Notes: generated by a model not told the origin, from the sequence alone. 64,000 nucleotides of DNA from an uncultured Actinomycetota bacterium (GCA_963753435.1 CAVWCF010000002.1:118410-182409); one strand, 5' to 3'; shown: positions 669-21,013, numbered from the stretch's first letter. Numbers and translations: made by a program.

Positions 669-2006
669 GTGGATAAGCAGCAGGAGTTCGTCCTCCGCAC
701 GCTGGAGGAACGCGACATTCGCTTCGTGCGCCTCTGGTTCACCGACGTGCTCGGGTTCTTGAAGTCGGTCGCGGTCGCGCCGGCTGAGCTTGAAGGTGCT
801 TTCGCTGAGGGCATGGGCTTCGACGGCTCGGCGATCCAGGGGTTCGCGCGGACCAATGAGGCCGACATGCTGGCCAAGCCGGACCCGTCGACCTTCGCGG
901 TACTGCCGTGGCGGGCCGAAGCGGCTGGGGCCGCGCGCATGTTCTGCGACATCCTGATGCCGGACGGGTCGCCGTCCTACGCCGACCCGCGACACGTGCT
1001 CAAACGTGCGCTCAACAAGGCGGGCGAGTTGGGCTTCACCTTCTACACGCATCCGGAGATCGAGTTCTTCCTCTTCTCCGACGTCCCGGGCGGAGGAGCC
1101 GAGCCGGTTCCGGTGGACTCCGGCGGCTACTTCGACCACGTACCGCACAGCCAGGGACAGGACTTCCGCCGCGCGGCGATCACCATGCTGGAGTCGATGG
1201 GCATCTCGGTGGAGTTCTCCCATCACGAAGGCGCCCCCGGGCAAAACGAGATTGACCTGCGCTACGCGGACGCGCTCACAACCGCCGACAACATCATGAC
1301 CTTCCGCCACGTGGTCAAAGAGGTGGCTCTGGAGCAGGGCATCTACGCGTCCTTCATGCCCAAGCCGTTCGCGCAGCACCCCGGGTCGGGCATGCACACG
1401 CACGTCTCCTTGTTCAGCGGCGACCAGAACGCGTTCTTCGAAGGTGGGGCTGAGTACCAGCTCAGCAAGGTGGCCAGGTCGTTCATCGCGGGCCTGCTGC
1501 GCCACGCCCCGGAGATCACCGCTGTCACCAACCAGTGGGTCAACTCCTACAAGCGGCTGTACGGCGGCGGCGAAGCCCCCGCTTACGTCTGCTGGGGCCA
1601 CAACAACCGCTCGGCCATGGTGCGCGTGCCCATGTACAAGCCGAGCAAGGGCCAGTCGACACGCATCGAGGTGCGTTCCCTGGATTCTGCGGCCAACCCG
1701 TACCTGGCTTTGGCGCTGATCCTGGCGGCGGGGCTGAAGGGCGTCGAGGAGGGCTATCCGCTGCCGGCGGAAGCCGAGGACGACGTCTGGGCCTTGTCCG
1801 AAGGTGAGCGCCGCGCCCTCGGCATCGAGCCGCTGCCGCAGAATCTGGCGGAGGCGATCGCGGTGATGGAGCAATCGGAGTTGGCCGCGGAGACGCTGGG
1901 CGAGCACGTGTTCGACTTCTTCCTGCGGAACAAGCGGGCGGAGTGGGCCGACTACCGAGCCCAGGTCACGCCGTTTGAGCGGGAGCGGTACCTGCCGGTC
2001 CTGTGA
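669..2006 (+). CDS. glnA2: type I glutamine synthetase-like protein (GlnA2 type)
   Basis: FDGSAI, HHEGAPGQNEI, FMPKPF..GSGMHTH, NRSAMVRVP and EVRSLDSAANPY motifs. No DLY adenylylation motif. Sits between nadE and glnE. Confidence 0.9.
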   Translation: MDKQQEFVLRTLEERDIRFVRLWFTDVLGFLKSVAVAPAELEGAFAEGMGFDGSAIQGFARTNEADMLAKPDPSTFAVLPWRAEAAGAARMFCDILMPDGSPSYADPRHVLKRALNKAGELGFTFYTHPEIEFFLFSDVPGGGAEPVPVDSGGYFDHVPHSQGQDFRRAAITMLESMGISVEFSHHEGAPGQNEIDLRYADALTTADNIMTFRHVVKEVALEQGIYASFMPKPFAQHPGSGMHTHVSLFSGDQNAFFEGGAEYQLSKVARSFIAGLLRHAPEITAVTNQWVNSYKRLYGGGEAPAYVCWGHNNRSAMVRVPMYKPSKGQSTRIEVRSLDSAANPYLALALILAAGLKGVEEGYPLPAEAEDDVWALSEGERRALGIEPLPQNLAEAIAVMEQSELAAETLGEHVFDFFLRNKRAEWADYRAQVTPFERERYLPVL

Positions 2007-2031
2007 CCTGGCACTGACTACCCTCCCGGGG

Positions 2032-4995
2032 GTGGCTGAGGACCGGGCGAAAACACTGCGCGCCCGTTTGATCCGTCTTGGATTCGCCGATGCCGCCGTT
2101 GCCGAGGCCGAACTGCAGGCGGATCCGCTCGACGATGAAGTACTTGTCGCATTGGGTGCCACCGCAGACCCCGACCAGGCATTGGCCGGGCTGCTGCGAT
2201 TGCGGTCCGCCGATGAGCGGGTGGGCGAGTTCCTGGCAGATGAGCAGCAACGAACTCGGTTGCTGGCGGTACTTGGGGTCAGCAGCGCCCTGACCGACTT
2301 CGTGGTTCGCCACCCCGACGAGTTGGCCTGGGTCGGCCGGGGATCCGAATTGCCGGATGCAGCCGGCATGCGCGCCTACCTGTCCGCTTGTGTGGGCTTG
2401 GGTCCCGGCAATGAAGCCACGCCTGGCCTCTCGAATCCCGCCGTCTCGGCGGGTGCCGATCGCTTGGACGCCCTCCGCGTCGGATACCGCGCGCTGGTGC
2501 TCGGTATCGCGGCCCGCGACCTGGTGGGTGAGCTGCAGTTCGACGATGTCGGTGCGGCATTGGCCAACGCCGCCGACGCCGTCTTGGACACCGCGCTGCG
2601 AATTGCTGCGGCGGAGTCCCCCGAGGACGCCGATGCGTGCCGGCTGGCGGTTATCGCCATGGGCAAGACCGGTGGATCGGAGTTGAACTACATCTCCGAC
2701 GTCGATGTCATCTACGTCGCCGAACCGGCTACCGGGGTGGACGAAACGGCCGCACTGGCTGCGGCCACGAGGCTGGCGACGCGACTGCAGCAGATCTGCT
2801 CCGCACCTACCGGTGAGGGGGCCATTTGGGAGGTCGATGCGGCGCTGCGACCGGAGGGCAAGGCCGGCGCGCTGGTGCGGACCCTGGCCAGTCACGCGGC
2901 CTACTACGAGCGGTGGGCCAAGACCTGGGAGTTCCAGGCCCTGCTGAAGGCCCGCCCGGCAGCCGGCGATCAGGCCTTGGGTGTCGCCTACTGCGACGCG
3001 GCCGCCGAACGGGTGTGGACCGCCGCCAATCGGGACGGCTTCGTCGCCGACGTTCAGGCGATGCGACGGCGCGTTGAGGAACACATCCCGGTGCGCGAGG
3101 CGCAGCGTCAACTCAAACTAGGCCGCGGCGGGCTGCGGGACGTGGAGTTCGCGGTGCAGTTGCTGCAACTGGTGCACGGCAAGTCGGATGTCTACGTGCG
3201 TAGCCGAACCACGCTGCAGGCGTTGGAGGCGCTGGCGACGTGGGGGTACGTGGCCCGCGAGGACGCTGCGGGGTTTGCGGCGTCGTACCGGTGGCTGCGG
3301 TCGCTGGAACACCGGATCCAGTTGCAGCGGCTGCGGCGAACGCACCTGTTGCCTACTGACGATGCAGCCCTGCGGCGCCTCGCCCGGTCAATGGGCCTGC
3401 GCGACGCTGCGCAACTGGACGACGAGTTGGCCGGGCACCGGCGTCGGGTCCGGCAGATCCACGAGAAGCTCTTCTACCGTCCCCTGCTGGACGCGGTTGC
3501 CCGGTTGGAGCCCGGGGTAGCCAGGCTGAGCCCGGAGGCGGCCCGGGATCGGCTGGAGGCACTTGGGTATCAGGACCCGCAAGGGGCGTTGCGCCATCTG
3601 GAGGCGCTGACGACGGGACTGAGCCGGCGGGCGCAAATCCAGCGCACGCTCCTGCCGGTCCTGCTTGGCTGGTTCGCCGACTACCCGGACCCGGACGCCG
3701 GGCTGTTGGGTTTTCGGCAGGTATCCGATTCGTTGGGATCGACGCCTTGGTATCTGCGCCTGCTGCGCGACGCCGGCGCGGCCGAGCGTCTCGTCCGGGT
3801 GCTTTCCACCTCTCGCTACGCGACCGATCTGCTACTGCGTGCGCCGGACGCTGTCGCGCTGCTCGACGGTGACGCGGAACTGCAGCCTCGGGATCAGTCC
3901 GTCTTGGTTGCGGAGATGGGCAATGCGGCCAGCCTGCATGAGGACCCGGAGTCCGCGATCGCGTCGGTCCGCGCGATCCGGCGACGAGAGTTGTTTCGCA
4001 TCTCGGTGGCGGACCTGCTGCGACGCCTGACCGCGGAGCAGGTTGGGCAGGCGTTGACCGACGTGGCTACGGCCACGATCCAGGCGGGGCTGACCGTGGC
4101 GACGGCGGCGATCGAATCCAAGCGTGGCTCCGTGCCGACCCGGTTCGCCGTCATCGGCATGGGCCGGTTGGGCGGGGCGGAGATGTCCTACTCATCCGAT
4201 GCCGATGTGCTGTTCGTCCACGACCCGCTTCCCGGCGCAGATGAGCGTGAAGCGAGCGATGCTGCGCACGCAGTCGCAAATGAACTGCGGCGCCTCCTTT
4301 CGCTACCCAGTGAGGACCCACCACTGGGAATCGACGCGGACCTGCGACCGGAAGGCCGACAAGGTCCCCTGGTCAGGTCGCTGGCGTCATACGCCGCCTA
4401 CTACGAGCGGTGGTCGCTGGTCTGGGAGGCGCAGGCTTTGCTTCGGGCAGTACCCATCGCCGGGGACGGGGACCTAGGTGCGCAGTTCGTTGAACTGATC
4501 GATCCGGTTCGTTATCCCGACAACGGTCTAGACGATGCGCACTTGCGTGAGATCCGGCGGATAAAGGCGCGGGTGGAGACCGAACGGATGCCACGGGGGA
4601 CGGACCCGCACCGCAACTTGAAGCTTGGTCCTGGTGGTCTGGCCGACGTGGAGTGGACCGCACAGTTGCTGCAGTTGCGGCACGGCCATGCCGAACCGGG
4701 CCTGCGGACGCCGCGGACGCGGGCGGCACTGCAGGCAGCAGTGGACGCTGGGTTGTTGGCAAGCGCGGACCGGGACACGTTGATCGAGGCGTGGCGCTTC
4801 GCAATGAGTGTGCGCAATGCCACGACCTTGGTGCGTGGCAAAGCCTCCGACACGCTGCCGGGCCCGGGCCGCGACCTCGCCGGAACTGCCCTTGTTGCCG
4901 GTTACGATCCAACGAACGCGGGCCAGTTGGAGGATGACTACCGACGGGCAGCGCGGCACGCACGCTCCGTGGTGGAGAGGGAGTTCTACCGGTGA
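2032..4995 (+). CDS. glnE: bifunctional glutamine synthetase adenylyltransferase/adenylyl-removing enzyme
   Basis: Two nucleotidyltransferase halves (AMGKTGGSELNYISDVD; GMGRLGGAEMSYSSDAD), DxxLRPEG twice, LKLGRGGLRDVEF and LKLGPGGLADVEW. Start moved to GTG 2032 behind a TACCCT -10 box. Confidence 0.95.
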   Translation: MAEDRAKTLRARLIRLGFADAAVAEAELQADPLDDEVLVALGATADPDQALAGLLRLRSADERVGEFLADEQQRTRLLAVLGVSSALTDFVVRHPDELAWVGRGSELPDAAGMRAYLSACVGLGPGNEATPGLSNPAVSAGADRLDALRVGYRALVLGIAARDLVGELQFDDVGAALANAADAVLDTALRIAAAESPEDADACRLAVIAMGKTGGSELNYISDVDVIYVAEPATGVDETAALAAATRLATRLQQICSAPTGEGAIWEVDAALRPEGKAGALVRTLASHAAYYERWAKTWEFQALLKARPAAGDQALGVAYCDAAAERVWTAANRDGFVADVQAMRRRVEEHIPVREAQRQLKLGRGGLRDVEFAVQLLQLVHGKSDVYVRSRTTLQALEALATWGYVAREDAAGFAASYRWLRSLEHRIQLQRLRRTHLLPTDDAALRRLARSMGLRDAAQLDDELAGHRRRVRQIHEKLFYRPLLDAVARLEPGVARLSPEAARDRLEALGYQDPQGALRHLEALTTGLSRRAQIQRTLLPVLLGWFADYPDPDAGLLGFRQVSDSLGSTPWYLRLLRDAGAAERLVRVLSTSRYATDLLLRAPDAVALLDGDAELQPRDQSVLVAEMGNAASLHEDPESAIASVRAIRRRELFRISVADLLRRLTAEQVGQALTDVATATIQAGLTVATAAIESKRGSVPTRFAVIGMGRLGGAEMSYSSDADVLFVHDPLPGADEREASDAAHAVANELRRLLSLPSEDPPLGIDADLRPEGRQGPLVRSLASYAAYYERWSLVWEAQALLRAVPIAGDGDLGAQFVELIDPVRYPDNGLDDAHLREIRRIKARVETERMPRGTDPHRNLKLGPGGLADVEWTAQLLQLRHGHAEPGLRTPRTRAALQAAVDAGLLASADRDTLIEAWRFAMSVRNATTLVRGKASDTLPGPGRDLAGTALVAGYDPTNAGQLEDDYRRAARHARSVVEREFYR

Positions 4996-7689: not shown

Positions 7690-8511
7690 ATGGCTCACGT
7701 GGACGGCGCGGACATGAGTGCTGTTGCAGCGGGCAGCGCGGCCACCCGCTGGCGAGAGCAACTGGCCGAGTGGGCGATTCCGCCAGCAATCTTGGAGCAG
7801 GCGGCGCAATCGCCGTGGTCCTTGCCGAAGGAGCTCTTCCGCGTAGAGGCCCCGGCTGAGGTGGACAGTCCCGCCACGGCGGCGGCTCGGGCGGCCCTGC
7901 CGGCAGGCGGCAGCGTGCTGGACGTCGGCTGCGGGGGAGGGGCTGCGGGCCTGGCGCTGGCCGACCGGGCCGGCGAGATCGTGGGCGTGGATTCGCGGGC
8001 CGACATGTTGGCTGAGTTCGGTGCCGCCGCCCGTCGGCTCGGAGTGGCCTTCCAGAGCGTCCAAGGGAACTGGCCGGAAGTCGCCGATGAGGTTGCGACC
8101 GCCGATGTAGTCGTGTGCCACCACGTGTTCTACAACGTGGCTGAACTGGTCCCGTTCGTCCAGGCGTTGACGGATCACGCCCGGTTGCGGGTGGTGGTGG
8201 AGTTGCCTAGAACGCACCCGACCAGCCGCATGGCCGCCTTGTGGGAGCACTTCTGGGGGGTGATCCGGCCCTCCGGGCCGACTGCGGACGATGCGGTGAG
8301 CGTCTTGCAGGAGATGGGCATAGCGCCGGAAGTGTCCACGTTCACTGCCCCCGCGCGGCGATTGGCCGACTTCACTGCCGAGGTGGAGCAGGCTCGAATC
8401 CATCTGTGCCTGCCACCGGAGCGAACCGGCGAAGTGGCAGCGTTGTTGGAGCGCATGGGGCCACCGGTGGCCCGGGAGTTGTACGCGCTGTCCTGGCCTG
8501 GCGGCGGCTAG
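7690..8511 (+). CDS. class I SAM-dependent methyltransferase
   Basis: VLDVGCGGG motif I, VGVD motif II, ADVVVCHHVFY. Start could be 7699 or 7714. Confidence 0.82.
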   Translation: MAHVDGADMSAVAAGSAATRWREQLAEWAIPPAILEQAAQSPWSLPKELFRVEAPAEVDSPATAAARAALPAGGSVLDVGCGGGAAGLALADRAGEIVGVDSRADMLAEFGAAARRLGVAFQSVQGNWPEVADEVATADVVVCHHVFYNVAELVPFVQALTDHARLRVVVELPRTHPTSRMAALWEHFWGVIRPSGPTADDAVSVLQEMGIAPEVSTFTAPARRLADFTAEVEQARIHLCLPPERTGEVAALLERMGPPVARELYALSWPGGG

Positions 8512-9365
8512 AAGGGCGAGATGTCCGGCCAGTCCGTGCCCAGGCCGGCGGCCTGGCGTGCGGCGACGATCTGGTCGTGGCCGTAACGGACCTTGAGCAT
8601 CTGGTCGACCCGCTCGTTGCCGATCGCCTTGCGGCTGATCACGTTCATCGGGTCGAGGATGTAGCCGTAGGTGCGGATGCGGTGGTCGCGATCCATCATC
8701 GCCAATCGCTCATCCTGCGGCACCTCGGTCGCGTCGTCCAACCAGCTCAGCCAACGCTCCACGCGCTTGGTGACTGCACCGCGCAGCAACTCGACGGTCT
8801 CCTTGGACCGCTCGGCGGTGTAGGAGTGGGCGACGGGAGAGTTGAACGCGCGCATGTAGGTGCCGTGGGAGACCGACCAGGTGAAATGCGTGTCGCCACG
8901 GAGCTTGAGGAAGTCGGGGTCCTCTTGGGCGTAGTACTTCTGCAAGTACTCCGCGTCCACCATGAGATCGCGACGGGGGACCAAGTCGGAGTAGTAGAAG
9001 ATGTCCGGGATCGTGCCGAAGACGAAGACCAGGTGCGGCACGTCGATGCTCTGATCCAGCCACACCTGCAAGTTCATGTCGAGGATCGAGGCCTTGCGGT
9101 TGCCGATCCAGGAATGCGCCATGTGGTCAACGCCGGGTCCGGTGTAGGTCTGCATCGAGCCCTCGAACGAGTCGTCCTCGGTGGACCAGTACTCCAGGCC
9201 GGCGCAGGAGGCTTGCACCTGCAGGTCCGGGAACCGGGCCACTACCTTTTCTTTGACGTCGGTGAGGATCCCGAAAAGGTCGCGGTGCGTCTCGGTGACG
9301 TCGACGTCCGGGTTCTCCGCGAGGTACTCGTGGATGGTCTTGGTCTGCGGCACGGCTTCAGTCAT
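8508..9365 (-). CDS. red chlorophyll catabolite reductase (RCCR)/ferredoxin-dependent bilin reductase-like protein
   Basis: SW...VPHLVFVF...DLVPRRDLMVDAEYLQKYY...VS..YMRAFNSP...DRDHRIR...LDP aligns by eye with RCCR motifs as I recall them (DLP.RKDLV..PDYL..YY, FVS.S..VRS..SP, ERD...R). Own TAAGGT -10 box before the ATG. Confidence 0.72.
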   Translation of the reverse strand: MTEAVPQTKTIHEYLAENPDVDVTETHRDLFGILTDVKEKVVARFPDLQVQASCAGLEYWSTEDDSFEGSMQTYTGPGVDHMAHSWIGNRKASILDMNLQVWLDQSIDVPHLVFVFGTIPDIFYYSDLVPRRDLMVDAEYLQKYYAQEDPDFLKLRGDTHFTWSVSHGTYMRAFNSPVAHSYTAERSKETVELLRGAVTKRVERWLSWLDDATEVPQDERLAMMDRDHRIRTYGYILDPMNVISRKAIGNERVDQMLKVRYGHDQIVAARQAAGLGTDWPDISPF

Positions 9366-9450
9366 GCGGGGACCTTAGTCGGACCCAATTTCGGCCCACG
9401 ACCGACCTAGGTCCCTTCTTGGCCGACGTAGCCCAGGCCCGCCAACGAAC

Positions 9451-9485
9451 GACGGAGGCCCCTGGGGAACCCAGGGGCCTCCGTC
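9451..9485 (-). terminator. intrinsic terminator of glnA
   Basis: Perfect 16-bp stem gacggaggcccctggg-gaa-cccaggggcctccgtc followed by GTTCGTT on the minus strand. Confidence 0.85.
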
Positions 9486-9520: not shown

Positions 9521-10945
9521 TCAGATGTCGTAGTACAGCTCGAACTCGTGCGGGTGCGGACGCAGACGGATCGGGTCGACCTCGTTGGTGCGCTTGTAGT
9601 CGATCCAGGTCTCGATCAGGTCCGGCGTGAACACGTCGCCCTCGGTGAGGAACTCGTGGTCGCCCTCGAGTGCGTCCAGCACCGCAGGCAGCGAGCCCGG
9701 CACGGTGCCGATGGCGTCGTGCTCCTCCGGCGGCAGCTCGTACAGGTCCTTGTCGACGGGCTCCGGCGGCTCGATCTTGTTCTTGATGCCGTCGAGCCCA
9801 GCCATCAGCATCGCCGAGAAGGCCAGGTACGGGTTGCTGGACGGGTCCGGCACCCGGAACTCGATCCGCTTGGCCTTCGGCGAGGTGCCGGTGACCGGGA
9901 TGCGCACGGCTGCGGACCGGTTGCGCTGGCTGTAGACCAGGTTCACCGGGGCCTCGAAGCCTGGCACCAGGCGGTGGTAGGAGTTCACCGTCGGGTTGGT
10001 GAAGGCCAGCAGGCTCGGCGCGTGCTTGAGCAGACCGCCGATGTACCAGCGGGCGGTGTCGGACAGGCCGGCATAGCCGAGCTCGTCGTAGAACAGCGGC
10101 TCGCCGTTCTTCCAGATGCTCTGGTGGGCGTGCATGCCGGAGCCGTTGTCGCCGAATAGCGGCTTCGGCATGAAGGTCGCCGATTTGCCAGCAGCCCAGG
10201 CGACGTTCTTGATGATGTACTTGAACTTCATCAGGTCGTCGGCGGAGTGCAGCAGGCTGTTGAACTGGTAGTTGATCTCGGCCTGTCCGGCGGTGCCGAC
10301 CTCGTGGTGGGCTCGCTCGACCTTCAGGCCGACCTCGATCAGCGTCTTGGACATGACGTCACGCAGGTCGGCGTAGTGGTCGACCGGCGGGACCGGGAAG
10401 TAGCCGCCCTTGTAGCGGGTCTTGTAACCGCGGTTGCCGCCCTCTTCCTCGCGGCCGGTGTTCCACGCGCCCTCGATGGAGTCGATGTAGTAGTACCCGG
10501 CGTTGGTCTTGGTCTCGAAGCGGACGTCGTCGAAGACGTAGAACTCCGCTTCCGGACCGAAGTAGGCGGTGTCACCGATCCCGGTGCTGTTCAGGTAGGC
10601 CTCCGCCTTCGCGGCGATGTTGCGCGGGTCGCGGCTGTAGGCCTCGTCCGTGAACGGGTCCCGGATGGAGAAGTTCAGCGCAAGCGTCTTCTCCGTCCGG
10701 AACGGGTCCACGAACGCGGTGGCCGCATCCGGAACCAGCTTCATGTCGGACTCGTGGATGGCCTGGAAACCACGGATCGACGACCCGTCGAACATCAGAC
10801 CTTCGTTGAACGTGTCCGCGGAGAACGACTCGACCGGAACGTTGAAGTGCTGCATGACACCCGGCAAGTCGCAGAACCGGACGTCGATGAACTGCACTCC
10901 CTCGTCCTTGACGAACTTCAGGAGCTCATCGGCGTTGGAGAACAT
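9521..10945 (-). CDS. glnA: glutamine synthetase I (GSI-beta)
   Basis: [50 protein letters not shown], adenylylation motif [12 protein letters not shown]-terminal [13 protein letters not shown]. Confidence 0.97.
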
Positions 10946-11012
10946 TCACCCTCCCTTTATGCAACGGCCCGGTTGGACCGCTGAGTGAATGCCGTGACCG
11001 TAGGTAGCGGCG

Positions 11013-11050
11013 GTTTCCCGTCGGTGTCCCGTTTGTTTCGCTGGCGTTAC
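11013..11050 (-). promoter_or_regulatory. full GlnR box upstream of glnA
   Basis: Minus strand reads GTAAC-n6-GAAAC-n6-GACAC-n6-GAAAC, the a-b-a-b GlnR consensus. Confidence 0.9.
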
Positions 11051-11107
11051 GCGCCCACCAGCCACCCCCGAAGTGCCACCTTTGCGCGTGGGAGTCAGAC
11101 TGGAGTC

Positions 11108-11659
11108 GTGGCCAATGACCCGGATTCCGGTAACGGCGCCGCTGGCGAATCCGGCCGAGGCCGGGGCTTTAGCCGTGCTGACATCGCGTCGTGGCTGGAG
11201 GGGCCGGGTGCGGCCGCCCGGGCCGCCGGCGTCGAGTTCGGCTACCGCGGCCAGCGACTGGGCCTGCCCGAGACGGGTCCGGGATCGGTTGGCGGCGTGG
11301 GGCGTCGGGTCGGGGCGCTGTTCCTCGACTGGTTCGCGGCGCTGTTCGTGACCCTGCTCGTGGCCTCGCCGCTGCGGTTGGACGCGAACTCAGATACCGC
11401 AACGGCCATCACCCGGGAATGGGCGACGCTGATCGTCTTTGCGGTAACCGTCTGGCTCGGGCTGACCTTGGCGTCCACGACCCTGGGCAAGCGGCTGCTG
11501 CGACTTCAGGTGGTGCGTGTTGACGGCACCCGGATCGGCGCCGGTCGCGCCGCCATCCGAACGCTGTTGCTGTGTCTGGTGATCCCGGCACTGATCTGGG
11601 ACCGCGATGGTCGCGGCCTGCACGACAAGGCCGTGGGCTCCGTCGTTGTGCGTACCTAG
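11108..11659 (+). CDS. RDD family membrane protein
   Basis: GQRLGLPETGPGS..GRRVGALFLDW, TLGKRLLRLQVV, DRDGRGLHDKAVGS. Divergent from glnA as usual. Confidence 0.88.
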   Translation: MANDPDSGNGAAGESGRGRGFSRADIASWLEGPGAAARAAGVEFGYRGQRLGLPETGPGSVGGVGRRVGALFLDWFAALFVTLLVASPLRLDANSDTATAITREWATLIVFAVTVWLGLTLASTTLGKRLLRLQVVRVDGTRIGAGRAAIRTLLLCLVIPALIWDRDGRGLHDKAVGSVVVRT

Positions 11660-11662
11660 CGG

Positions 11663-12343
11663 TCAGCCGCGGGGCGGGCGGGGCATGCGTGCCCCCTTCG
11701 GGAGCGGACCCTTGGGCATGGACACCGGCTGCTGCATGGAAGCCATCGCCTTGAGCCGCTGGTTGACGTCAGTGACCTGACCTGGCCGCAGCGCCTTCGG
11801 CAACTTGATGACGGCGCGGTTCAGTTTGCGCAAGGTCACCTGGCCGTCGGTGTCGCCGACGACGATCTCGTGGATCGGTACCTCGCCGACCACGCGAGCC
11901 GTGCGGCGAGACTCACTGCGCAGCAGGTTGCTGACCCGGCCGGGGGAGCCTTCGGCGATGAGCACCACCCCCGGACGGCCCACCACGCGGTGCACCACGT
12001 CGTACTGCCGTGTCGCCGCTACCGCCGGTGTCACAGTCCAGCCCCGGCGCAGGGTCCCCAGCACCGCAGCTGCGGCTCCGGGCTTGCCTTCGATCTGGCT
12101 CAGCGCCGCCTTCTCCGCCCGGCGCCCGAACACGAAGGTGGCGAGCAGCAGGCCGATTCCCAGCCCGAACAGCCCCCAGAGCACCGGTCCACCGATGAGC
12201 AGGCCGAACCCCACCCCGGCCAGGATCGGCAGGAGCAGGCAGGCCAGCAGGACCCAACCAATGCGTGGGTCGGCCTGACGGGTGAGGGTGTAGGCGGTGC
12301 GGAGTTGCCGAATTCGGCCCGGCTTCTGTTCTGGGGTGCTCAC
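11663..12343 (-). CDS. DUF4191 family membrane protein
   Basis: Two TM segments, FGRRAEKA..QIEGKPGAA, HRVVGRPGVVLIAEG, MPKGPLP. Downstream of lipA. Confidence 0.85.
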   Translation of the reverse strand: MSTPEQKPGRIRQLRTAYTLTRQADPRIGWVLLACLLLPILAGVGFGLLIGGPVLWGLFGLGIGLLLATFVFGRRAEKAALSQIEGKPGAAAAVLGTLRRGWTVTPAVAATRQYDVVHRVVGRPGVVLIAEGSPGRVSNLLRSESRRTARVVGEVPIHEIVVGDTDGQVTLRKLNRAVIKLPKALRPGQVTDVNQRLKAMASMQQPVSMPKGPLPKGARMPRPPRG

Positions 12344-12352
12344 GCGCCCAGA

Positions 12353-13330
12353 CTACGTGGCCGACCGCGCCGGACCGGTTGGGGCAGCGACCCCGTCAGC
12401 GGCCCCGACGCTGGCCGACCGCGCCGCGGCCGCCTCGCGGTAGAGGCGTCCGGCGCGGTAGGAGGAGCGCACCAGCGGCCCGCTCATCACCCCGGCGAAG
12501 CCCAGGTCCGCGGCAACGGCGGCCCAATGGTCGAACTCGGCCGGTTCCACCCAGCGGGAGATCGGGTGGTGCCGAGCCGACGGCCGCAAGTACTGCGTGA
12601 TGGTGATCAGGTCGCAACCGGCCGCCCGCAAGTCCCGCAGCGCCGTTTCCACCTCCGCGGCCTCCTCGCCCATGCCGAGGATCAGGTTGGACTTCGTCAG
12701 CATCCCGGCCGCCCGGGCGAGCGTGATGACGGAAAGGGAAAGGTCGTAGCTGAACGCCGGGCGGATCCTCTTGAAGACCCGCGGCACCGTCTCCAAGTTG
12801 TGTGCGAAGACCTGCGGTGCCGCATCGAAGACCTGCTGCAGCAGTTCCGGTTTGCCGCTGAAGTCCGGGGTCAGAATCTCCACGCCGGTTTCGGGGTTGA
12901 GACCGTGCACGGCGCGCACCGTCTCGGCGTACAGCCAGGCCCCCTCATCGGGAAGGTCATCGCGCGTGACGCCGGTGATGGTCGCGTATCGCAGCCCCAT
13001 TGACCGCACCGATTCGGCGACGCGACGCGGCTCGTCGACGTCCAGCGGCTGCGGTTTGCCGGTGTCGATCTGGCAGAAGTCGCAGCGTCGGGTGCACTGG
13101 TCCCCGCCGATGAGGAACGTCGCCTCCCGGTCCTCCCAGCATTCGTAGATGTTGGGGCAACCAGCCTCCTGGCAGACGGTGTGCAGCCCCTCGGTCTGCA
13201 CCAGTTCCCGGATCGCGGTGTACTCCGGGCCCATGCGCGCCCGGGTCTTGATCCACTCGGGCTTGCGCTCGATCGGGGTCTGCGCGTTGCGGACCTCAAG
13301 TCGCAGCATGCGCCGTGGTTGATCGGTCAT
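12353..13330 (-). CDS. lipA: lipoyl synthase
   Basis: [12 protein letters not shown] (CX4CX5C), CTRRCDFC radical-SAM motif, RSSY motif. Confidence 0.97.
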
Positions 13331-14022
13331 GAGCCGACCGCCTGCGCCGCCACCGGCTCTGGTCGCTGCGACCTGCCAGCGCGTTCGGCCAGGAAGGACT
13401 CCCACCCCTCGTGCAAGTGGGACTCAACTATCGGCAGCGCGTCTGCGACCGCGACGGTTCGCCCCAACTCGGCGGTGAGCGACGTCACGCCGGCATCGGC
13501 GATGCCGCAGGGGACGATCCGTTCGAACGCCGTCAGGTCGCAATCACAGTTCAAGGCGAAGCCATGCATCGTGACCCCACTGGCCACGCGCACGCCGATC
13601 GCGGCCACCTTCCGTGCCGGACCGCGGGAGTCGGCATCTACCCAAACCCCGCTGCGGCCGACCACCCGGACGGTAGGAAGCCCGAAGTCGGCGCAGGATC
13701 GAATCAGCACGTCCTCCAGGAACCGCACGTAGGCGACGACGTCCACCGGGTCGGGCAACCGCACGATGGGGTAGCCGACCAACTGGCCTGGTCCATGCCA
13801 GGTGATCTTGCCGCCGCGGTCCACATCTACCACGGGGGTGCCGTCGGTTGGCCGCTCCAACGGGTGCGTGCGCTTGCCGGCGGTGTAGACGGGCTGGTGC
13901 TCCAGCAGCAGCAGTTGATTCTCCGCACCGTCGGCAACCTCAGCGTGGGTGCGCCGCTGCTGCGCCCACGCCTCCGGATAGGCCACGGCCTCGTGAGCCA
14001 GACCTAGGACGGTGGTGCGCAT
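13327..14022 (-). CDS. lipB: lipoyl(octanoyl) transferase
   Basis: [50 protein letters not shown]. Confidence 0.96.
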
Positions 14023-14031
14023 CACCCCACC

Positions 14032-14769
14032 CTAAGCGCTGTCGCGCACCCGCCCTGGACGCAGCCGGGTCTCCACCACCTGGCCGCCGACCAGGTCCAC
14101 GCGGTAGGCGGCCGGGCCCGTCTCAGGGTCGTATTCCTCGTCGGTGAACACGGCAACCGCCTCGGTGCCTTCGTAGAGCACGCCGACCCGATCGTCGGTG
14201 GCATAACTGGTGGGCAGCGTTCCGTCCGCCACGAGGGAGTGCAGCAGTGGGCGGCGCTGCTTCTCGGAGTCGTAGTGAACCCCGTTGCCGTACGGCAGCA
14301 GCCCTAGACCGTTGGTCACCGGCTGCAACTTCGGTCCGAAGGAGTCGGTCGGACCACCCACATGCCAGCAGATCGACCCGGCGCTCACCCCGCCGAGCAC
14401 GGTGCCTCCTTGCCAGGCCTCGGCCAGCAACTGTGGCAGCCCGTGCACCGACCACACCGCCAACAGGTTCGCGACCGAGCCGCCGCCGACCCAGATGAGG
14501 TCAGCCCCGAGCAGTTGTTCGGCGGGATCGGCGTTCGGCTGGGGGAACAGTTCCAAGTGGGTCACTTCAGCAAGCGGGGCCAACGCGGCATAGCGACGGT
14601 GGTAGGTCGGTCGGTCATCGCCCCCGGCGGTCTCCAGCAGGCACACCCGGGGTCGGTCCTTGCCGGTGAGTCGCAGGGCTTCCAGGACGAGCCCGCCCGG
14701 TCGGGACACGAGCCAGCGCTCGGTGGGCAGGAACCCGCCGGAGGTCGCCAGGATGCGCGGAGTGGGCAT
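14032..14769 (-). CDS. peptidase E (S51) family protein
   Basis: WVGGGSVANLL, GVSAGSICW nucleophile elbow, GVHYDSE. Confidence 0.85.
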   Translation of the reverse strand: MPTPRILATSGGFLPTERWLVSRPGGLVLEALRLTGKDRPRVCLLETAGGDDRPTYHRRYAALAPLAEVTHLELFPQPNADPAEQLLGADLIWVGGGSVANLLAVWSVHGLPQLLAEAWQGGTVLGGVSAGSICWHVGGPTDSFGPKLQPVTNGLGLLPYGNGVHYDSEKQRRPLLHSLVADGTLPTSYATDDRVGVLYEGTEAVAVFTDEEYDPETGPAAYRVDLVGGQVVETRLRPGRVRDSA

Positions 14770-14774
14770 CCGCC

Positions 14775-16073
14775 TCAGCCCTGGACTCGGTGCGGCAGCG
14801 GCTCGGGGTTCGGGAGTCGAATCGGCGCCTGGAGCACCGCTTCGGCGGCCCGGCGGCCCGAAACCATCGCCCCCTGAAGCGAACCGGAGTCGCGGTGGTC
14901 GCCGGCGATGAAGATCCCGTCACCCAACGCCACCGGCAGCTGGAAATCGTGCGGCGGCGGCATCGCGGGTAGGGCGTAGTCGATGGCGTAGGTGCCGACC
15001 AGGTCCCAGGAGGACGCGTCAGCACCCAGCAGGCGGCGCAGGTGCCGCCGCACTGATTCGATCGTGGCGGCATCGGTCTTCGTCCCCAGCAGCGTCGCGG
15101 CGACCAGGCTGCGGCTGCTTGGTGAGTAGCCGGGGGCGGCGTTGCTGATGACCACAGCGTTGATCAAAGGGCCGCGTCGGTGCCCGTCAACTACGAGGAT
15201 CGGCTCGCCGCCGGTCAGGGGGCCGGCAGCGGACAAGAAGTACAGCGTCGTGCAAGCGCGTCCTTCGGGTACAGCGAGCCCGGGCAGCAGCACGGCCGCC
15301 TGCGTGGGATCCGTGGCCACCACCACTGCGGCGGCGCGCACTGAACCGTCGTCGGTGTGGACCGTCGTGCCATCAAGTCGCCGAACCGGACTGTTCAGCC
15401 GCACGTCCGCGCAGCCGGCGGCCAGTTGCTCGGGAATCCGCTGCATGCCGCGTTCGGGCACGCCCGGGGTCGCCCGAAGGAACGTCCTGAGGACGAAGTC
15501 GGCGAAGCGCCTGGACGTATCCAGTTCGGATTCCAGGAACACGCCGGCAAAGAACGGGCGCAGCAGCCGCTCGATCGCGCCTTCGGACACCCCCATTTCC
15601 GCCAAAGCCGCGGCCGTCGAAGCGTCCGGCTCGGCCGCGAGCTGCGACCCCTCCGATTGCAGCGCTCGAGTGGCCCAACGAAGCAGGATGGCAGCGTCCC
15701 GCGGGCCAAGGACCCCGCTGAGCGCGGACTCAAGGAGTCGGCGCTGATCCCGGCGGGGATCAAGGAGCCGATAGCGGCGAGTTCGCCCATTGGCGTCGTC
15801 CAGGGCCACCGCAATGCCGGGCGCCAGCGGCTGCAGCCGGAGAGCGTCCAGGTCCAGCACGCGCCGCCCCTCGGGGTAGGCGGGGTTGTAGACCTGAAAG
15901 CCGCGGTCCAACAACAGCCCGTCGACCTCATCGGTGCGCACGCGTCCGCCCACGGCGTCGCCGGCCTCCAGGACGAGGACTTCGCGGCCGGCACGAGTCA
16001 GATGCCCGGCTGCGGCCAGCCCGGAGATGCCCGCGCCGATCACGACGGTGTCGACGAACGCAGGAAGCGGCAT
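14775..16073 (-). CDS. FAD-dependent oxidoreductase (flavin amine oxidase-like family)
   Basis: GAGISGLAAA..LEA..VGGRVRT..LDRGFQV and C-terminal AGDHRDSGSLQGAMVSGRRAA. Confidence 0.85.
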   Translation of the reverse strand: MPLPAFVDTVVIGAGISGLAAAGHLTRAGREVLVLEAGDAVGGRVRTDEVDGLLLDRGFQVYNPAYPEGRRVLDLDALRLQPLAPGIAVALDDANGRTRRYRLLDPRRDQRRLLESALSGVLGPRDAAILLRWATRALQSEGSQLAAEPDASTAAALAEMGVSEGAIERLLRPFFAGVFLESELDTSRRFADFVLRTFLRATPGVPERGMQRIPEQLAAGCADVRLNSPVRRLDGTTVHTDDGSVRAAAVVVATDPTQAAVLLPGLAVPEGRACTTLYFLSAAGPLTGGEPILVVDGHRRGPLINAVVISNAAPGYSPSSRSLVAATLLGTKTDAATIESVRRHLRRLLGADASSWDLVGTYAIDYALPAMPPPHDFQLPVALGDGIFIAGDHRDSGSLQGAMVSGRRAAEAVLQAPIRLPNPEPLPHRVQG

Positions 16074-16158
16074 GCCGTGACGCTACTGCGGCCACCGACT
16101 GCTCGCCCTGTGGATGGCGTCCCACGGCCTTCACCCGATCGGGGCATGCTCCGCGGCC

Positions 16159-16760
16159 ATGTCCACTCTGACGCGTCCGCAACGCTCGGCCACAACTACT
16201 GGAGGATGGCGGCGCCGAGTTGTGGGTGCGCTGCTGGTCGGTGCCGTGATCAGCGCCGGGGTGGCCGTCGGCGTCGGTTTGTCAGCGTCGCCCGGATCCC
16301 CGGAGGCGCTGCCCGTTGCCGCGCCCGGATCCGATGGGCCGGTTTCGATGCGGGCGGAGCCACCTCCGTCGACTGGGCCGAGGTGGTGGCCGACCTGGAC
16401 CTGGCTCGAGATCTGGCCCTACGCAACGGCAACCCAGCGGCCATCGCCAACTACGCCGCCGCCGGCTCACCTGCCGCGGCCGCGGACGAGGCGCTGCTGC
16501 AGCAGGTCCGGTCCGCATCCTTGCGTCCGTCGCCGGTCCTTCCGGAGTTGAGCGATGTTGAAGCACTGGAAGTCGCTGCCGAGGAAGTGCGATTGCGCGT
16601 GAGTGACCGGCTCCCGGCCGTGTCGTGGATCGGCGCGGATGGAGTGGCGGCGGCAACGCAGGAGGTAAGGGAGCTGAGCACCTGGTTGGTCAGTCTGCGC
16701 TGGGTTGAGGGGCGCTGGCTGCTCTGGGACGTGAGCGCGGAAGCAGCAGGTGCTCGCTAG
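16159..16760 (+). pseudogene. membrane-anchored hypothetical protein split by a frameshift near 16340-16370 (possibly an assembly error)
   Basis: One frame gives MSTLTRP...WRRRVVGALLVGAVISAGVAVG (TM). A second frame continues VDWAEVVADLDLARD...GSPAAAADEALL...RLRVSDRL...WLVSLRWVEGRWLLWDV. Confidence 0.55.
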
Positions 16761-17665
16761 GCGTTGCTGAGTGCCTGGTCTATGACGGCCGTCGCGTCCT
16801 TGTCGGCGAATGCGAACCCGGCGTCGGTGAGCCGCTTCGGAACTACTTCGAATGAACCCAGGACGTCGTCGGCGAAGTCGCCCAGGACGAGCCGAAGCGC
16901 GAACTTCGGTACTGGGGCGATGGTTGGCCTGTGGATCGCTTTCCCCAAAAGGCGCGTGAACTCGCCGTTGGTGGTCGGCTCGGGGGCGGAGACGTTGTAT
17001 GGGCCGTTGGCGTCCTCTTGCTCCAGGAGGAAGCGCAGGGCGCGGACAACGTCGCGGAGGGAGACGACGCTCCAGACAGACTTCCCGCCGGCGAGAGGGC
17101 CCAGGAGGCCGGCCTTGCCCAGCGGCAGTAGGCGCCGACCGAAGGTGCTGCCGGAGGCGTCCATCACCAGTGCAAGGCGGGGGAGTACGACTCGGACCCC
17201 GGCCGCGGCCGCTGCCTGTGCGGCCGCCTCCTTGTCGACGATGATGCCGGCGGCGAAGTCGGAACCGGCGGGTGATTCCTCGGTGAGCTGCCCGCCGCCG
17301 TTGTCGAGTCCGTAGTAGCCCATGGCCCCGACGCTGATGAGGACCGCGGGCCTGGGGTCGGCAGCGACAGCGAGTTCGGCTGTCGCGCGAGCCGCAGCAA
17401 CGTGGCTGTCGTGCAAGGTGCGCTTGTATGAATCGGTCCACCGCTTGTCGCCGATGCCGGCGCCGGCGAGGTTGACGATGGCGTCAACGGGGCCAAGCGA
17501 CTGCGGGTCTACACCTCCGGCCGGCTGGTGCACGTCCCAGGACACCTCGTCCGGTGCGCTTGCGGGTCGGCGCACCAGCCGAACGACTTGATGCCCATCG
17601 GCGGTCAGCGAATCGACCAGCGCCGACCCGACGAAGCCGCTGGAACCAGCGATGGCAATGCGCAT
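16757..17665 (-). CDS. TIGR01777 family NAD-dependent epimerase-like oxidoreductase
   Basis: IAGSSGFVGSAL, NLAGAGIGDKRWT, GPYNVSAPEP, PKRL..GFAF. Downstream of sucB. Confidence 0.88.
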   Translation of the reverse strand: MRIAIAGSSGFVGSALVDSLTADGHQVVRLVRRPASAPDEVSWDVHQPAGGVDPQSLGPVDAIVNLAGAGIGDKRWTDSYKRTLHDSHVAAARATAELAVAADPRPAVLISVGAMGYYGLDNGGGQLTEESPAGSDFAAGIIVDKEAAAQAAAAAGVRVVLPRLALVMDASGSTFGRRLLPLGKAGLLGPLAGGKSVWSVVSLRDVVRALRFLLEQEDANGPYNVSAPEPTTNGEFTRLLGKAIHRPTIAPVPKFALRLVLGDFADDVLGSFEVVPKRLTDAGFAFADKDATAVIDQALSNA

Positions 17666-17711
17666 ACGACGAGTCTTGCGGAAGCGGGCGCTTTCGGCAC
17701 TGCGAAGGTGC

Positions 17712-19601
17712 CTAGTAGCCGAGCTCCGCCTCGAAACGGCCTTCCTCGAGGCGCTTCTGAACAGTTACCAGGAAGCGTGCGGCGTCGGCACCGTCAACGA
17801 GGCGGTGGTCGTACGTCAACGCGAGGAATGCCATCGACCGAATTGCGATCGAGTCGGTTCCGGTGTCGTCGGTGACAACCACCGGACGCTTGACGACGGC
17901 CCCGGTCCCAAGGATGCCGACCTGAGGCTGATTGAGGATGGGGGTGTCGAACAGCGCGCCGCGCGAACCCGTGTTGGTCAGGGTGAACGTGCCGCCGGAC
18001 AGTTCATCCGGGGACACCTGGCCGGTGCGAGTTCGCTCGGCCAGGTCGGCGATACGCCGCGCCAGTCCCGCAATGTTCAGTTCGCCGGCGTTCTGGATGA
18101 CGGGAACCAGCAGTCCGCGCTCGGTGTCGACGGCGATGCCCAGGTGCTCTGCTGCGTGGTACGTCACCGTCCCGTTGTCAGCGTCCAGCGTTGAGTTCAA
18201 CTTCGGATGGGCCTTGAGGGCCTCCGCAGTGGCCTTCGCGAAGAACGGCAGGAAGGAGAGCTTGACGCCTTCCTGCTGCAGGAACTGAGCCTTGACGCGG
18301 TCACGCAACCGCGCGATCTTCGTCACGTCCACTTCGACCACAGTGGTTAGTTGCGCCGAGGTCTGCAGCGACTCGACCATGCGCTGCGCGATGACCTTGC
18401 GCAGACGGCTGACCTGCTCGGTGGTGCCGCGGACCCGGGCCGCTTCGGCCGGAACGGGGATCGCCGCTGCTGGGGCCGCTGCCGGAGCGGCAGCCGGCGT
18501 CGCGGCCGGCGGTGCTGCTGCCTGCAACGCCTTTGCCGCGTCCAGAACGTCCTGCTTGCGAACGCGCCCGCCGACGCCGGTGCCGACGATGGTCGCCAGG
18601 TCCACGCCGTTCTCGGCGGCCAGCTTGCGCACCAACGGTGTCACGTAGGTGCCGCCGTCGACGCCGCCACTGGCGGCCGCAACTGCCGGCGCCGCGGTAA
18701 CCGGGGATGCCGGCGCTGGAGCTGGTGCTGCCGGTGGTGCCGGGGGTGCTGCGGCCGGAGCCGGTGCTGGGGGTGCCGGGGGAGCCGGGGCAGGGGCGGC
18801 CGGCGGGGTCAAGAGCGAGGGAGCCGGTCGCGATGCCGGGGGCTCCACCGGTGGTGCGGGGGCTTCCGGTGCCGGCGGAGCCGCTGGGGCTGCCGCCACT
18901 GCGGGCGCCGCGGATCCGACGGCGATGAGGCCCAACTGACCGCCGACGACGACAACGCCATCGGGCTCAACGGTGATCTCCGCGAGAACCCCCGCAACCG
19001 GCGACGGAATCTCGGTGTCGACCTTGTCGGTGGACACCTCCAGCAGCGGCTCATCGGCAGCGACGGTGTCACCGATCGACTTCAGCCACCGGGTGACGGT
19101 GCCTTCGGTGACCGACTCGCCCAGCGGCGGCAGCAGCACCGGTGTCGACGCGGCCCCGCCGCCAGCGGATGGCGCCGGCGCAGCGACAGGTTCTGCCGCG
19201 GGCGCCACAGCCGGTGGCGCGGCGGGTGCCGGTGGCGACTCGGCCAGAGCCGAGAGCGCAGCCGAGGCGTCCTGAGCCAGGGACTCTGCGGTGGGAGGAG
19301 CGGGCGCGGGCGGCTCCGGTGCGACCGGGGCGGCCGGGGTCGCCGGGGCAGCCCCTGCTTCGCTCGCATCGCCGATCAGGGCCAACTCCTCACCGACCTG
19401 AACCACCTGGTCCTCCGCAGCGACGATGCGCAACAGCACGCCGGCGGCGGGGGACGGGATCTCGGTGTCGACCTTGTCGGTGGACACCTCCAGCAGCGGT
19501 TCGTCCGCGGCGACGGTGTCGCCCTCGGACTTCAGCCACCGGGTCACTGTTCCCTCGGTGACGCTCTCGCCCAGTTGGGGCATGGGCACGGAGATGGCCA
19601 T
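17712..19601 (-). CDS. sucB: 2-oxoacid dehydrogenase E2 dihydrolipoamide acyltransferase with two lipoyl domains (SucB/DlaT)
   Basis: Two [14 protein letters not shown] lipoyl motifs, E3-binding [20 protein letters not shown], catalytic [17 protein letters not shown]. Confidence 0.95.
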
Positions 19602-19627
19602 CAGCGCTGCGCTTCCTTTCGCCTGGG

Positions 19628-21013
19628 TCAGCCGTGGACGTGCAGAGGCTTGCCGGCGAGCGCCAGGTGCGCCTCGCCCATTGCCTCGGACATTGTGGGG
19701 TGGGCGTGCACCAGCGGCGCGACGTCGTCGGCGTGGGCCTCCCAGTTGTAGATGAGCTGCCCTTCGGCGAGCAGCTCGCCGACACGAGCGCCGACCATGT
19801 GCACACCGAGGACCGGCCCATCGGTGCGGGCCACCAGCTTCACGGCTCCGGTCGTCTTGAGGATTTGGCTCTTGCCGTTGCCGGCCAGGTCGTAAGTCAA
19901 CGTGGTGACGTCGCCGTAGCGCTCGCGGGCAGCTGCTTCGGTGAGGCCGACCGACGCCACCTCGGGATCTGAGTAGGTCACCCGCGGCACGCCGTCGTAG
20001 TCGATCGGGCGGGGCGACTGGCCGGCGATTTGCTCGGCCACCAGGATGCCTTCGGCGAACCCAACGTGCGCCAATTGCAGTGTGGGAATGAGGTCGCCCA
20101 CGGCGAACACTCCCGGTACCGAAGTCCGGCAGTACTCGTCGACGACGACGTAGCCGCGATCCATGGCCACGCCCACTTCTTCGTACCCGAGTCCGGCAGA
20201 TACCGGACCACGACCGACCGCGACCAGCAGCAACTCCGCGTCGATCGTCTTGCCGCTCTCCAAGGCCACCTGAACCCCGGTGGCCGTCTGCTGTACCCCG
20301 GCGAACCTGGCGCCCAGTTCGAATGCGATGCCGCGGCGGCGGAATGCCCGCTCCAGGAGCTTGGAGGAGGCCTCATCCTCGGCGGGGACCAGGTGTGGCA
20401 GCGCCTCGACGATGGTCACGTCCGCACCGAAAGAGCGCCACACACTGGCGAACTCGACGCCGATCACGCCGCCACCGAGGACCACGACGCTGGCCGGAAC
20501 ACGGTCCAGTTGCAGCGCCTGGTCAGAGGTGATGACCCGGACGCCGTCGATGTCGAGACCTGGCAGCGAACGCGGTACCGACCCGGTGGCCAGCAGCACG
20601 TTGCGCCCGGTGAAGTCGGAGCCATTGACCCGGACCGTGTTGGCCGAAACCAGCCGGCCCTCACCCTCGACGTAGGTGATCCCGCGGCTCTTGACCAGGC
20701 CCTGCAGGCCCTTGTACAGCTTGCCGACGACGCCGTCCTTGTATTCGTTGACGGTCTTCATGTCGATGCCGAGCAGTGACGCCTGCACACCGAACTGAGC
20801 ACTCTCGCGGGCCGAGTCGGCGACCTCGCCGGCGTGCAGGAGGGCCTTCGTCGGGATACAGCCACGGTGCAGGCACGTGCCGCCCAGTTTGTCCTTCTCG
20901 ATCAGCGCGACCGACAGCCCCAGGTAGGCGCCGCGCAGCGCAGCCGCGTAGCCGCCGCTGCCCCCGCCAAGAATGACCAGGTCAAAGGCAGAGCCGGTGG
21001 GCGCCTCGGTCAC
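19628..21013 (-). CDS. lpdA: dihydrolipoyl dehydrogenase
   Basis: [20 protein letters not shown] redox disulfide, [17 protein letters not shown]. Confidence 0.96.

Follow-up and report, generated by a model that had tools for sequence, protein, structure and literature searches.

The window is a 64,000-nt stretch of DNA from an uncultured Actinomycetota bacterium whose 2.17-Mb genome (G000) is 98% complete. The gene considered here, which we call type A, lies in it with the following features:

8508..9365, minus strand: type-A gene of the RCCR/bilin-reductase fold (P0002), an ORF of 285 aa, assigned by Pfam, predicted model, and fold comparison
9372..9377, minus strand: predicted -10 box TAAGGT (TANNNT) of a leaderless promoter, 6 nt before the ATG
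9358..9426, no strand assigned: imperfect inverted repeat spanning the promoter, with 25-nt arms (72%) and the -10 box inside one arm
9451..9485, no strand assigned: perfect 16-bp hairpin after glnA, likely the glnA terminator, separating glnA from type A

Type A is a real gene of the known RCCR/bilin-reductase family and a distinct variant within it. The 285-aa ORF contains all of the sequence blocks quoted in the first-pass annotation, with the gap in VS...YMRAFNSP being three residues rather than two. The protein matches Pfam RCC_reductase (PF06405) at 51.8 bits (E value, 8.3e-14; gathering cutoff, 24.9), while the Pfam search returned no match to Fe_bilin_red (PF05996) at an E value of ≤0.1. 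NCBIfam returned no family for it. The closest PDB sequence is that of Arabidopsis RCCR, ahead of tomato HY2 and PebB (E values of 1e-14 for RCCR and 5e-5 for HY2). An AlphaFold (AF2) model of the protein (pLDDT, 92.2) retrieved RCCR (3aga) as its top Foldseek match (E value, 1.3e-12), and VIA scores against HY2, PebB, and RCCR were tied (Z of 24.6, 24.4, and 24.3, within a range of 23.7 to 24.6), the best alignment (Z of 24.6) having an rmsd of 2.9 over 245 residues. In both comparisons, the model has the alpha/beta/alpha sandwich of the RCCR/FDBR superfamily, so the structural comparison with RCCR and PcyA that had been suggested recovered the bilin reductase fold (Z of about 24). Together with the PF06405 match, this bears out the initial identification of the gene as an RCCR/bilin reductase homologue. 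The solved families sharing the fold at a VIA Z of ≥11.7 are tetrapyrrole enzymes (PMC10151467), save one chloroplast import motor subunit. A homologue search returned 411 matches, the best 120 of which are 47 to 96% identical; the genera named among the matches listed are Nocardioides, Aeromicrobium, Mumia, Parahaliea, and Litorivivens.

In the window, type A is surrounded by methyltransferase, glnA, RDD, DUF4191, and lipoate genes. A functional link to the glnA, methyltransferase, or lipoate neighbors was rejected, as none recurs in 48 related loci and the hairpin (which a T-tract terminator scan did not call) separates glnA. Positions 669 to 4995 hold an ordinary actinobacterial glnA2-glnE region (named from translations), and positions 9521 to 21013 hold an equally ordinary glnA1-RDD-DUF4191-lipA-lipB-dlaT-lpd region, where RDD and DUF4191 were named by Pfam and the others from translations. 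The first-pass annotation had found no adjacent heme oxygenase or phytochrome gene; indeed, no heme oxygenase, phytochrome PHY domain, or photosynthetic reaction center was found anywhere in G000 by searches whose controls were detected. A rhodopsin search of G000 gave no match, and its control likewise gave none.

The proposal that the gene has its own leaderless promoter and codon usage like that of glnA is also supported by the sequence. A TANNNT box lies 5 to 8 nt before the start in 41/46 type-A orthologues, and, genome-wide, TANNNT occupies the leaderless position in 247/2041 genes versus 13 to 24 at shifted control positions. The codon adaptation index (CAI) of the window gene (0.702) falls in the 96th percentile of 1664 genes, compared with 0.802 for glnA and 0.478 for the neighboring methyltransferase. 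This bias matches that of a core operon located elsewhere in the genome (described below), in which five of six genes have a CAI of 0.71 to 0.81. Short contigs on the type-A gene, 97 to 100% alike, occur in three estuary metatranscriptome samples, from which strand, start, and level are not readable and in which DNA may be present; they are not taken as evidence of expression. Half or more of the gene's sequence words were found in two DNA runs only, from sediment and runoff.

The candidate pocket residues of type A, with counts among 113 type-A homologues, are encoded at the following codons:

9078..9080, minus strand: Asp96 (113/113), candidate proton donor two residues before the position of PcyA His88
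9072..9074, minus strand: Asn98 (111/113), putative equivalent of PcyA His88 and AtHY2 Asp116
9021..9023, minus strand: Val115, in place of RCCR Glu154 and PcyA Asp105
8865..8867, minus strand: His167, invariant in type A (113 sequences)
8652..8654, minus strand: Asp238 (113/113), equivalent of RCCR Asp291 and HY2 Asp256

Positions 96 and 98 were placed by alignment to HY2 and with Table 2 of PMC13446030. RCCR numbering carries an offset of 43, confirmed by the F218V entry and by the residue range of the chain (56 to 319). Judging from strand alternation, Asp96 probably faces the pocket, and Asp96, His167, and Asp238, being invariant, look like catalytic residues. We presume catalytic roles for RCCR Glu154, on the central sheet, and Asp291, on the distal helix; our literature search did not find these roles. 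The first-pass annotation had described the Glu154 position as hydrophobic and the C-terminal Asp as kept, and both observations are correct: position 115 is Val in 106, Ile in 6, and Asp in 1 of the 113 homologues (Val/Ile in 112/113), and Asp238 aligns with Asp291 in all of them. The Glu154-Val115 alignment was counted from an invariant Pro, and the HMMER alignment puts a two-residue gap there; the register is fixed because relatives carry Glu in an otherwise near-identical strand. Glu occupies this position in 6/6 plant-clade rows and in 5 other rows. A supposed conserved basic ferredoxin-binding pair after Asp238 was ruled out, column 245 being mixed Glu/Lys; the HY2 residue roles behind that idea are likewise our assumption, and the literature search did not find them. 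According to Table 2 of PMC13446030 and 10.1101/2022.08.22.504806, PcyA His88 corresponds to AtHY2 Asp116 and PcyA Asp105 to AtHY2 Asn133; for HY2, PebB, and PebS, these sources also attribute reduction of the A ring to a distal Asp, and they report that land-plant HY2 has no central Asp and is still active. Type A resembles land-plant HY2 in that the central acid is missing and the distal acid is kept. Within the bilin reductase family, product is described as poorly predictable from sequence (10.1101/2022.08.22.504806).

The source genome contains five RCCR-fold genes (A, B, C, F, and G), with the window gene standing apart from types B and C:

G000 C1:1570329: type B, RCCR-fold paralogue
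G000 C1:1567172: type C, RCCR-fold paralogue
G000 C1:1302701-1305215 (L116:2701-5215): gene F, a fusion of an atypical SDR with a type-C domain
G000 C1:809496: gene G, a weak, type-C-like match beside an oxygenase-like gene without a Rieske domain

A sixth candidate at C1:1360621 was ruled out as SDR only. An apparent tandem RCCR pair in Nocardioidaceae was also discarded; its second gene is an atypical SDR that had clustered via the SDR-type-C fusions. The gene after fusion F has no Pfam match, and the pair recurs in L025, L029, and G434. The oxygenase paralogue directly before gene G (C1:808567-809499; L115:2567-3499) is 46% identical to the Rieske oxygenase of the core operon, keeps the VanA_C domain, has no Rieske domain, and is possibly a second subunit; shorter second oxygenase matches of this kind occur in G402, G405, G406, and G407. 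In a quick tree (72 rows, midpoint root, 18 fragmentary or frameshifted rows left out), type A, type C, and plant RCCR form separate clades (SH-aLRT of 100, 98, and 100, respectively), so that type A falls outside the plant RCCR clade; type B does not group tightly, and support for the deep forks is low. Type B carries Asn-x-His at positions 96 to 98 (His in 25/28 at position 98) and mostly Ala at 115, and it scores 28 with PF05996 against a cutoff of 31. Type C has Asp at position 115 in 12/12 sequences.

The core operon (C1:1550-1586 kb) carries types B and C along with genes for an alpha/beta hydrolase, a Rieske oxygenase, a double-barrel protein, an SDR, a membrane protein, and a racemase-family protein. 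On its flanks lie genes for an ABC importer and surface proteins, for a regulator, and for a set of enzymes: a nitrilase-family protein, an HMG-CoA-lyase-like protein, aldehyde dehydrogenases, a CoA transferase, and a flavin monooxygenase pair. A lower block at C1:66-87 kb encodes MaoC hydratases, an LLM oxidoreductase, PrpD-like proteins, a thiolase, an acyl-CoA dehydrogenase, a CitE-like lyase, a cyclase, a cyclic amidohydrolase, and a CoA ligase. Type A, the operon, and the lower block are in pieces in G000 and lie in a single ∼55-kb island in Nocardioides caricicola and Mumia quercus; in the closest relative, G001, which is the sole further genome of this order, type A occupies the island's left end. 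Overall, the island contains an importer, hydrolases, amidases, CoA transferases, hydratases, and lyases. Literature searches found no description of this putative catabolic system, to which the window gene points.

Two metagenome contigs that are likely proteobacterial (L094 and L095; type A is 71 to 73% identical to a Parahaliea protein) place type A among homologues of the island nitrilase and both SDRs, and L095 adds a PrpB-like lyase, an aldehyde dehydrogenase, two racemase-family genes, a flavin monooxygenase, and an isochorismatase-family gene. A TonB receptor is added at the type-A locus in L087 and L089; gene calling with a G000 codon model did not pick up type A itself in these two contigs or in L006. 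In a second lineage (L005-L009, L036, L041, L098, and L100-L103), type A likewise stands by itself, and its site is constant, with a FemAB/racemase-like pair on one side and a membrane-protein gene on the other (labels by sequence resemblance); thus, type A left the island at least twice. A plasmid search gave no match for type A or B, and no viral contig was confirmed as a carrier among 69 pattern matches. The double-barrel protein (L051:6205-7176, 323 aa) has no Pfam family and a predicted DUF3598/BFA1-like fold (Foldseek E value, 1.6e-9). A 1417-aa frame at C1:1555571-1559824 (L114:7571-11824) combines a binding-protein-like part, an MFS domain, and an ABC ATPase domain, with WxL and WxL-interacting surface proteins upstream.

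Lower-pathway proteins resemble RipB/Ich, RipC, PrpB, PrpD, and class III CoA transferases, with all names except HMG-CoA lyase below NCBIfam cutoffs. Three Asp/Glu-racemase-family proteins (L051:3862-4608, L051:18269-19012, and L111:4997-5776) were also found. In alignments to 4fq7 and 2xec, both catalytic cysteines of maleate isomerase are missing, and the three G000 copies show the same motifs; the label maleate cis-trans isomerase was therefore ruled out.

Shared operators also mark the island. In Nocardioidaceae, a TAGATCATATA-type palindrome overlaps the promoter of type A and recurs at further promoters of the island. The motif TGGAAC-N3-GTTCCA precedes type A in G001 and in loci L007-L009, and in relatives it also precedes type B, the importer, and the regulator. 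G000 retains this operator upstream of its importer, type-B, and regulator genes, and the window gene lacks it (best score there, -6.1 bits, in a scan that is noisy because several in-gene matches score equally high). We take the TAGATCATATA-type and TGGAAC-N3-GTTCCA motifs to belong to GntR- and IclR-type regulators. As it has no operator, the window gene may be constitutive. An operator-like palindrome at C1:1194477, with a score within noise, lies 76 nt before a hemL-like gene of a heme synthesis operon.

Co-occurrence was assessed in 47/48 type-A genomes, L003 being left out as a G001 contig. Because most carriers are closely related, the counts indicate tight linkage rather than independent events: the Rieske oxygenase (best E value of ≤6.5e-55), a type-C match, and at least two matches to the type-A profile are each present in 47/47 genomes, the double-barrel protein is present in 45/47, and heme oxygenase is present in 27/47. 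The distance from type A to the oxygenase is ≤30 kb in 34/47; in another 2 the genes share a contig but are far apart, and in 11 they lie on different contigs. Scans of 400 other Actinomycetota, in which 4 to 6 candidates per genome were scored, yielded an RCCR-like match in 2 genomes and an oxygenase at an E value of ≤1e-30 in 14 (one being G002); at <1e-50, the oxygenase occurred only in the same 2 genomes as the RCCR-like match. G434 has types A, B, and C, no barrel protein, and an oxygenase located away from them.

We assign a probability of roughly one-half to the reading that type A performs a reductive step in the bacterial breakdown of chlorophyll-type tetrapyrroles, as one of three conserved RCCR-fold types. 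The observed fold, residue pattern, co-occurrence, and gene content support this reading as the best explanation, and from them we infer an order of steps. The ABC importer would take up pigment derivatives, alpha/beta hydrolases would strip ester groups, the Rieske oxygenase would open the ring, and the linear product would be handled in turn by types B, C, and A. Type A would likely reduce a double bond of the ring-opened, chlorophyll-derived tetrapyrrole. It would act at a terminal ring, because the central acid is absent and the distal Asp238 is kept, as in land-plant HY2, with Asp96 as a second proton donor. The pyrrole fragments would then become alkyl-substituted C4 dicarboxylates, which amidases, CoA transferases, hydratases, and C-C lyases would feed into central metabolism. 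In G000, the island would have been broken up and type A moved beside glnA, with its leaderless promoter kept and the operator of its relatives lost. Several observations weigh against this reading: the oxygenase gives no PaO domain match, the hydrolase stays under the Chlorophyllase cutoff, the catalytic cysteines are missing from the isomerase-like proteins, every lower-pathway name but HMG-CoA lyase falls short of its cutoff, the island has no ferredoxin gene, the basic pair after Asp238 varies, and G434 departs from the usual gene arrangement.

A role in degrading tetrapyrrole catabolites, as the first-pass annotation had suggested from sequence, is likely, and the gene set would allow nonphotosynthetic bacteria to feed on chlorophyll-type pigments. 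Elsewhere in the genome are genes for an oxygenase, an importer, two further paralogue types, and a lower pathway, and these genes adjoin the type-A orthologue in most relatives. The annotation's further proposals of an algal substrate source and of ferredoxin dependence gained no support. More tentatively, and short of even odds, the gene set may constitute a complete, cross-phylum pathway that mineralizes chlorophyll-type tetrapyrroles by import, non-PAO Rieske opening, three RCCR-fold types, and alkyl-dicarboxylate CoA chemistry. Proton donors would then be Asp96/Asp238 in type A, a His in type B, and the central Asp in type C, and the type-A active site would have no described counterpart among bilin reductases, with NAD(P)H delivered through the SDR, rather than ferredoxin, as its possible electron source.

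It is rather unlikely that type A is not a ferredoxin-fed reductase at all and instead binds, channels, or isomerizes a linear tetrapyrrole with an NAD(P)H-type SDR or serves as a subunit beside types B and C. An atypical SDR gene directly follows type A in 33/46 loci, with a 4-nt overlap in 30, and in G000 and its relatives a type-C domain is fused to an SDR of this family; an NAD(P)H-fed or nonredox role is therefore conceivable. An SDR of the gene set may resemble NYC1/NOL-type chlorophyll b reductase; the best 120 homologues listed carry generic SDR names or none. The loss of the central acid and the acidic character of type A (pI 4.98) point in the same direction, as does the ferredoxin complement. 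No stand-alone plant-type ferredoxin was found in G000, where PF00111 matches are confined to long frames, and no ferredoxin gene lies within the island; small ferredoxins in G000 are of the Rieske and 4Fe-4S types only and lie elsewhere. Of the partners that the first-pass annotation had proposed, an oxygenase is thus encoded elsewhere in the genome (the Rieske enzyme), and a stand-alone plant-type ferredoxin was not found. However, the invariant Asp96, His167, and Asp238 look catalytic, land-plant HY2 is reported to be active with no central acid, and the SDR is not adjacent to type A in 13/46 loci, including the window. An apparent A-SDR fusion in L047 was ruled out as a frameshift.

The preferred reading, breakdown of chlorophyll-type tetrapyrroles, must also be weighed against a pathway that consumes heme-type pigments (biliverdin, phycobilins, bilirubin, or porphyrins) or tetrapyrroles broadly, with type A as an A-ring bilin reductase like HY2 and PebB. 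The model indeed fits HY2 and PebB as well as RCCR, and its residue pattern is HY2-like. Matches to the PAO and chlorophyllase families fell short: the island oxygenase has Rieske and VanA_C domains, two of its orthologues gave no PaO domain match at an E value of ≤10 and were not assigned to the PAO/phyllobilin enzymes, and the island alpha/beta hydrolase scored 10.9 and 18.9 bits with Chlorophyllase, under the cutoff of 26. A search for Staygreen (SGR Mg-dechelatase) gave no match, as did its control. Such a pathway is nevertheless quite unlikely, with the type-A sequence being far closer to RCCR than to HY2 and heme oxygenase being absent from G000 and from 20/47 carriers, whereas the Rieske oxygenase is present in 47/47. 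An ABM protein considered as an IsdG-type heme oxygenase gave only weak anthrone-oxygenase matches and no IsdG or MhuD entry.

Finally, degradation of a non-tetrapyrrole nitrogen heterocycle or aromatic by an RCCR fold recruited to a new substrate is improbable: the closest solved relatives of the oxygenase are SxtT/GxtA-type (saxitoxin) and methylxanthine demethylases, the flavin monooxygenases, amidohydrolases, and steroid-type thiolase/ChsH2-like genes are common to many catabolic routes, and the three pocket designs diverge, but the known enzymes of this fold act on tetrapyrroles, the oxygenase-RCCR pairing repeats plant PAO-RCCR logic, and a Shewanella acanthi cluster with an RCCR homologue is linked to chlorophyll discoloration, the mutant tested being a hydrolase double mutant only (10.64898/2026.03.19.712979).

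About 1.15 billion tonnes of chlorophyll are made yearly, and its microbial breakdown beyond the first steps has been called unknown (10.64898/2026.03.19.712979). Under the chlorophyll reading, the gene set supplies named candidates for every step in soil bacteria that are culturable and harmless (Nocardioides and Mumia), so that microbial chlorophyll breakdown becomes directly testable; the single window gene is less remarkable than the system to which it points. Routes for maleamate (nicotinate) and itaconate/mesaconate invite comparison with the island through its isochorismatase-family, nitrilase-family, RipB-, RipC-, PrpB-, and PrpD-like genes and class III CoA transferases. The route logic behind this comparison is our assumption, and because scores fall below family cutoffs and the isomerase-like proteins lack both cysteines, the likenesses are analogies only.

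The first-pass annotation had treated a nonphototrophic host as a surprise, which is unsupported because such homologues have been reported: a preprint (10.64898/2026.03.19.712979) lists 1,193 prokaryotic structural homologues of RCCR ("SH-RCCR"), with Actinomycetota the largest group and Nocardioidaceae named, and describes a "complete pathway RCCR" and an 11-kb cluster in S. acanthi. In that species, chlorophyll discoloration was slower in a hydrolase double mutant, and the mutant set includes no RCCR gene. Thus, bacterial, largely actinobacterial RCCR homologues are already known; the preprint appears to treat SH-RCCR as one class, and the three-type division, active-site residue pattern, lower pathway, and regulon were not found in it. 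The pre-PcyA reductases of heterotrophic bacteria (PMC10151467 and PMC13446030) share with type A a bilin-reductase fold in nonphototrophs; they are described as keeping an acid at the Asp105 position and accompanying heme oxygenases and globins, and RCCR-like proteins form the outgroup there.

HY2 and PebB (PDB entries 6kme and 6qx6) share with type A an equal structural fit and the distal Asp, and land-plant HY2, like type A, is reported to have no acid at the PcyA Asp105 position. Unlike them, type A is only 14 to 16% identical, does not match PF05996, and has Asn at the HY2 Asp116 position with an Asp two residues earlier; G000 has no heme oxygenase or phytochrome, so chromophore synthesis is not its role. 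Plant RCCR/ACD2 (PF06405; PDB entries 2zxk and 3aga), which reduces RCC to pFCC and so detoxifies ring-opened chlorophyll, shares the fold, the best sequence match, the equivalent of Asp291, and the link to a Rieske oxygenase. In contrast to plant RCCR, type A is ∼20% identical, forms a separate clade, and has Val for Glu154, with Asp96 and His167 as new invariants; the island oxygenase lacks a PaO domain, and three paralogue types occur in one organism, their different pocket residues offering a natural test of double-bond choice by the bilin-reductase fold.
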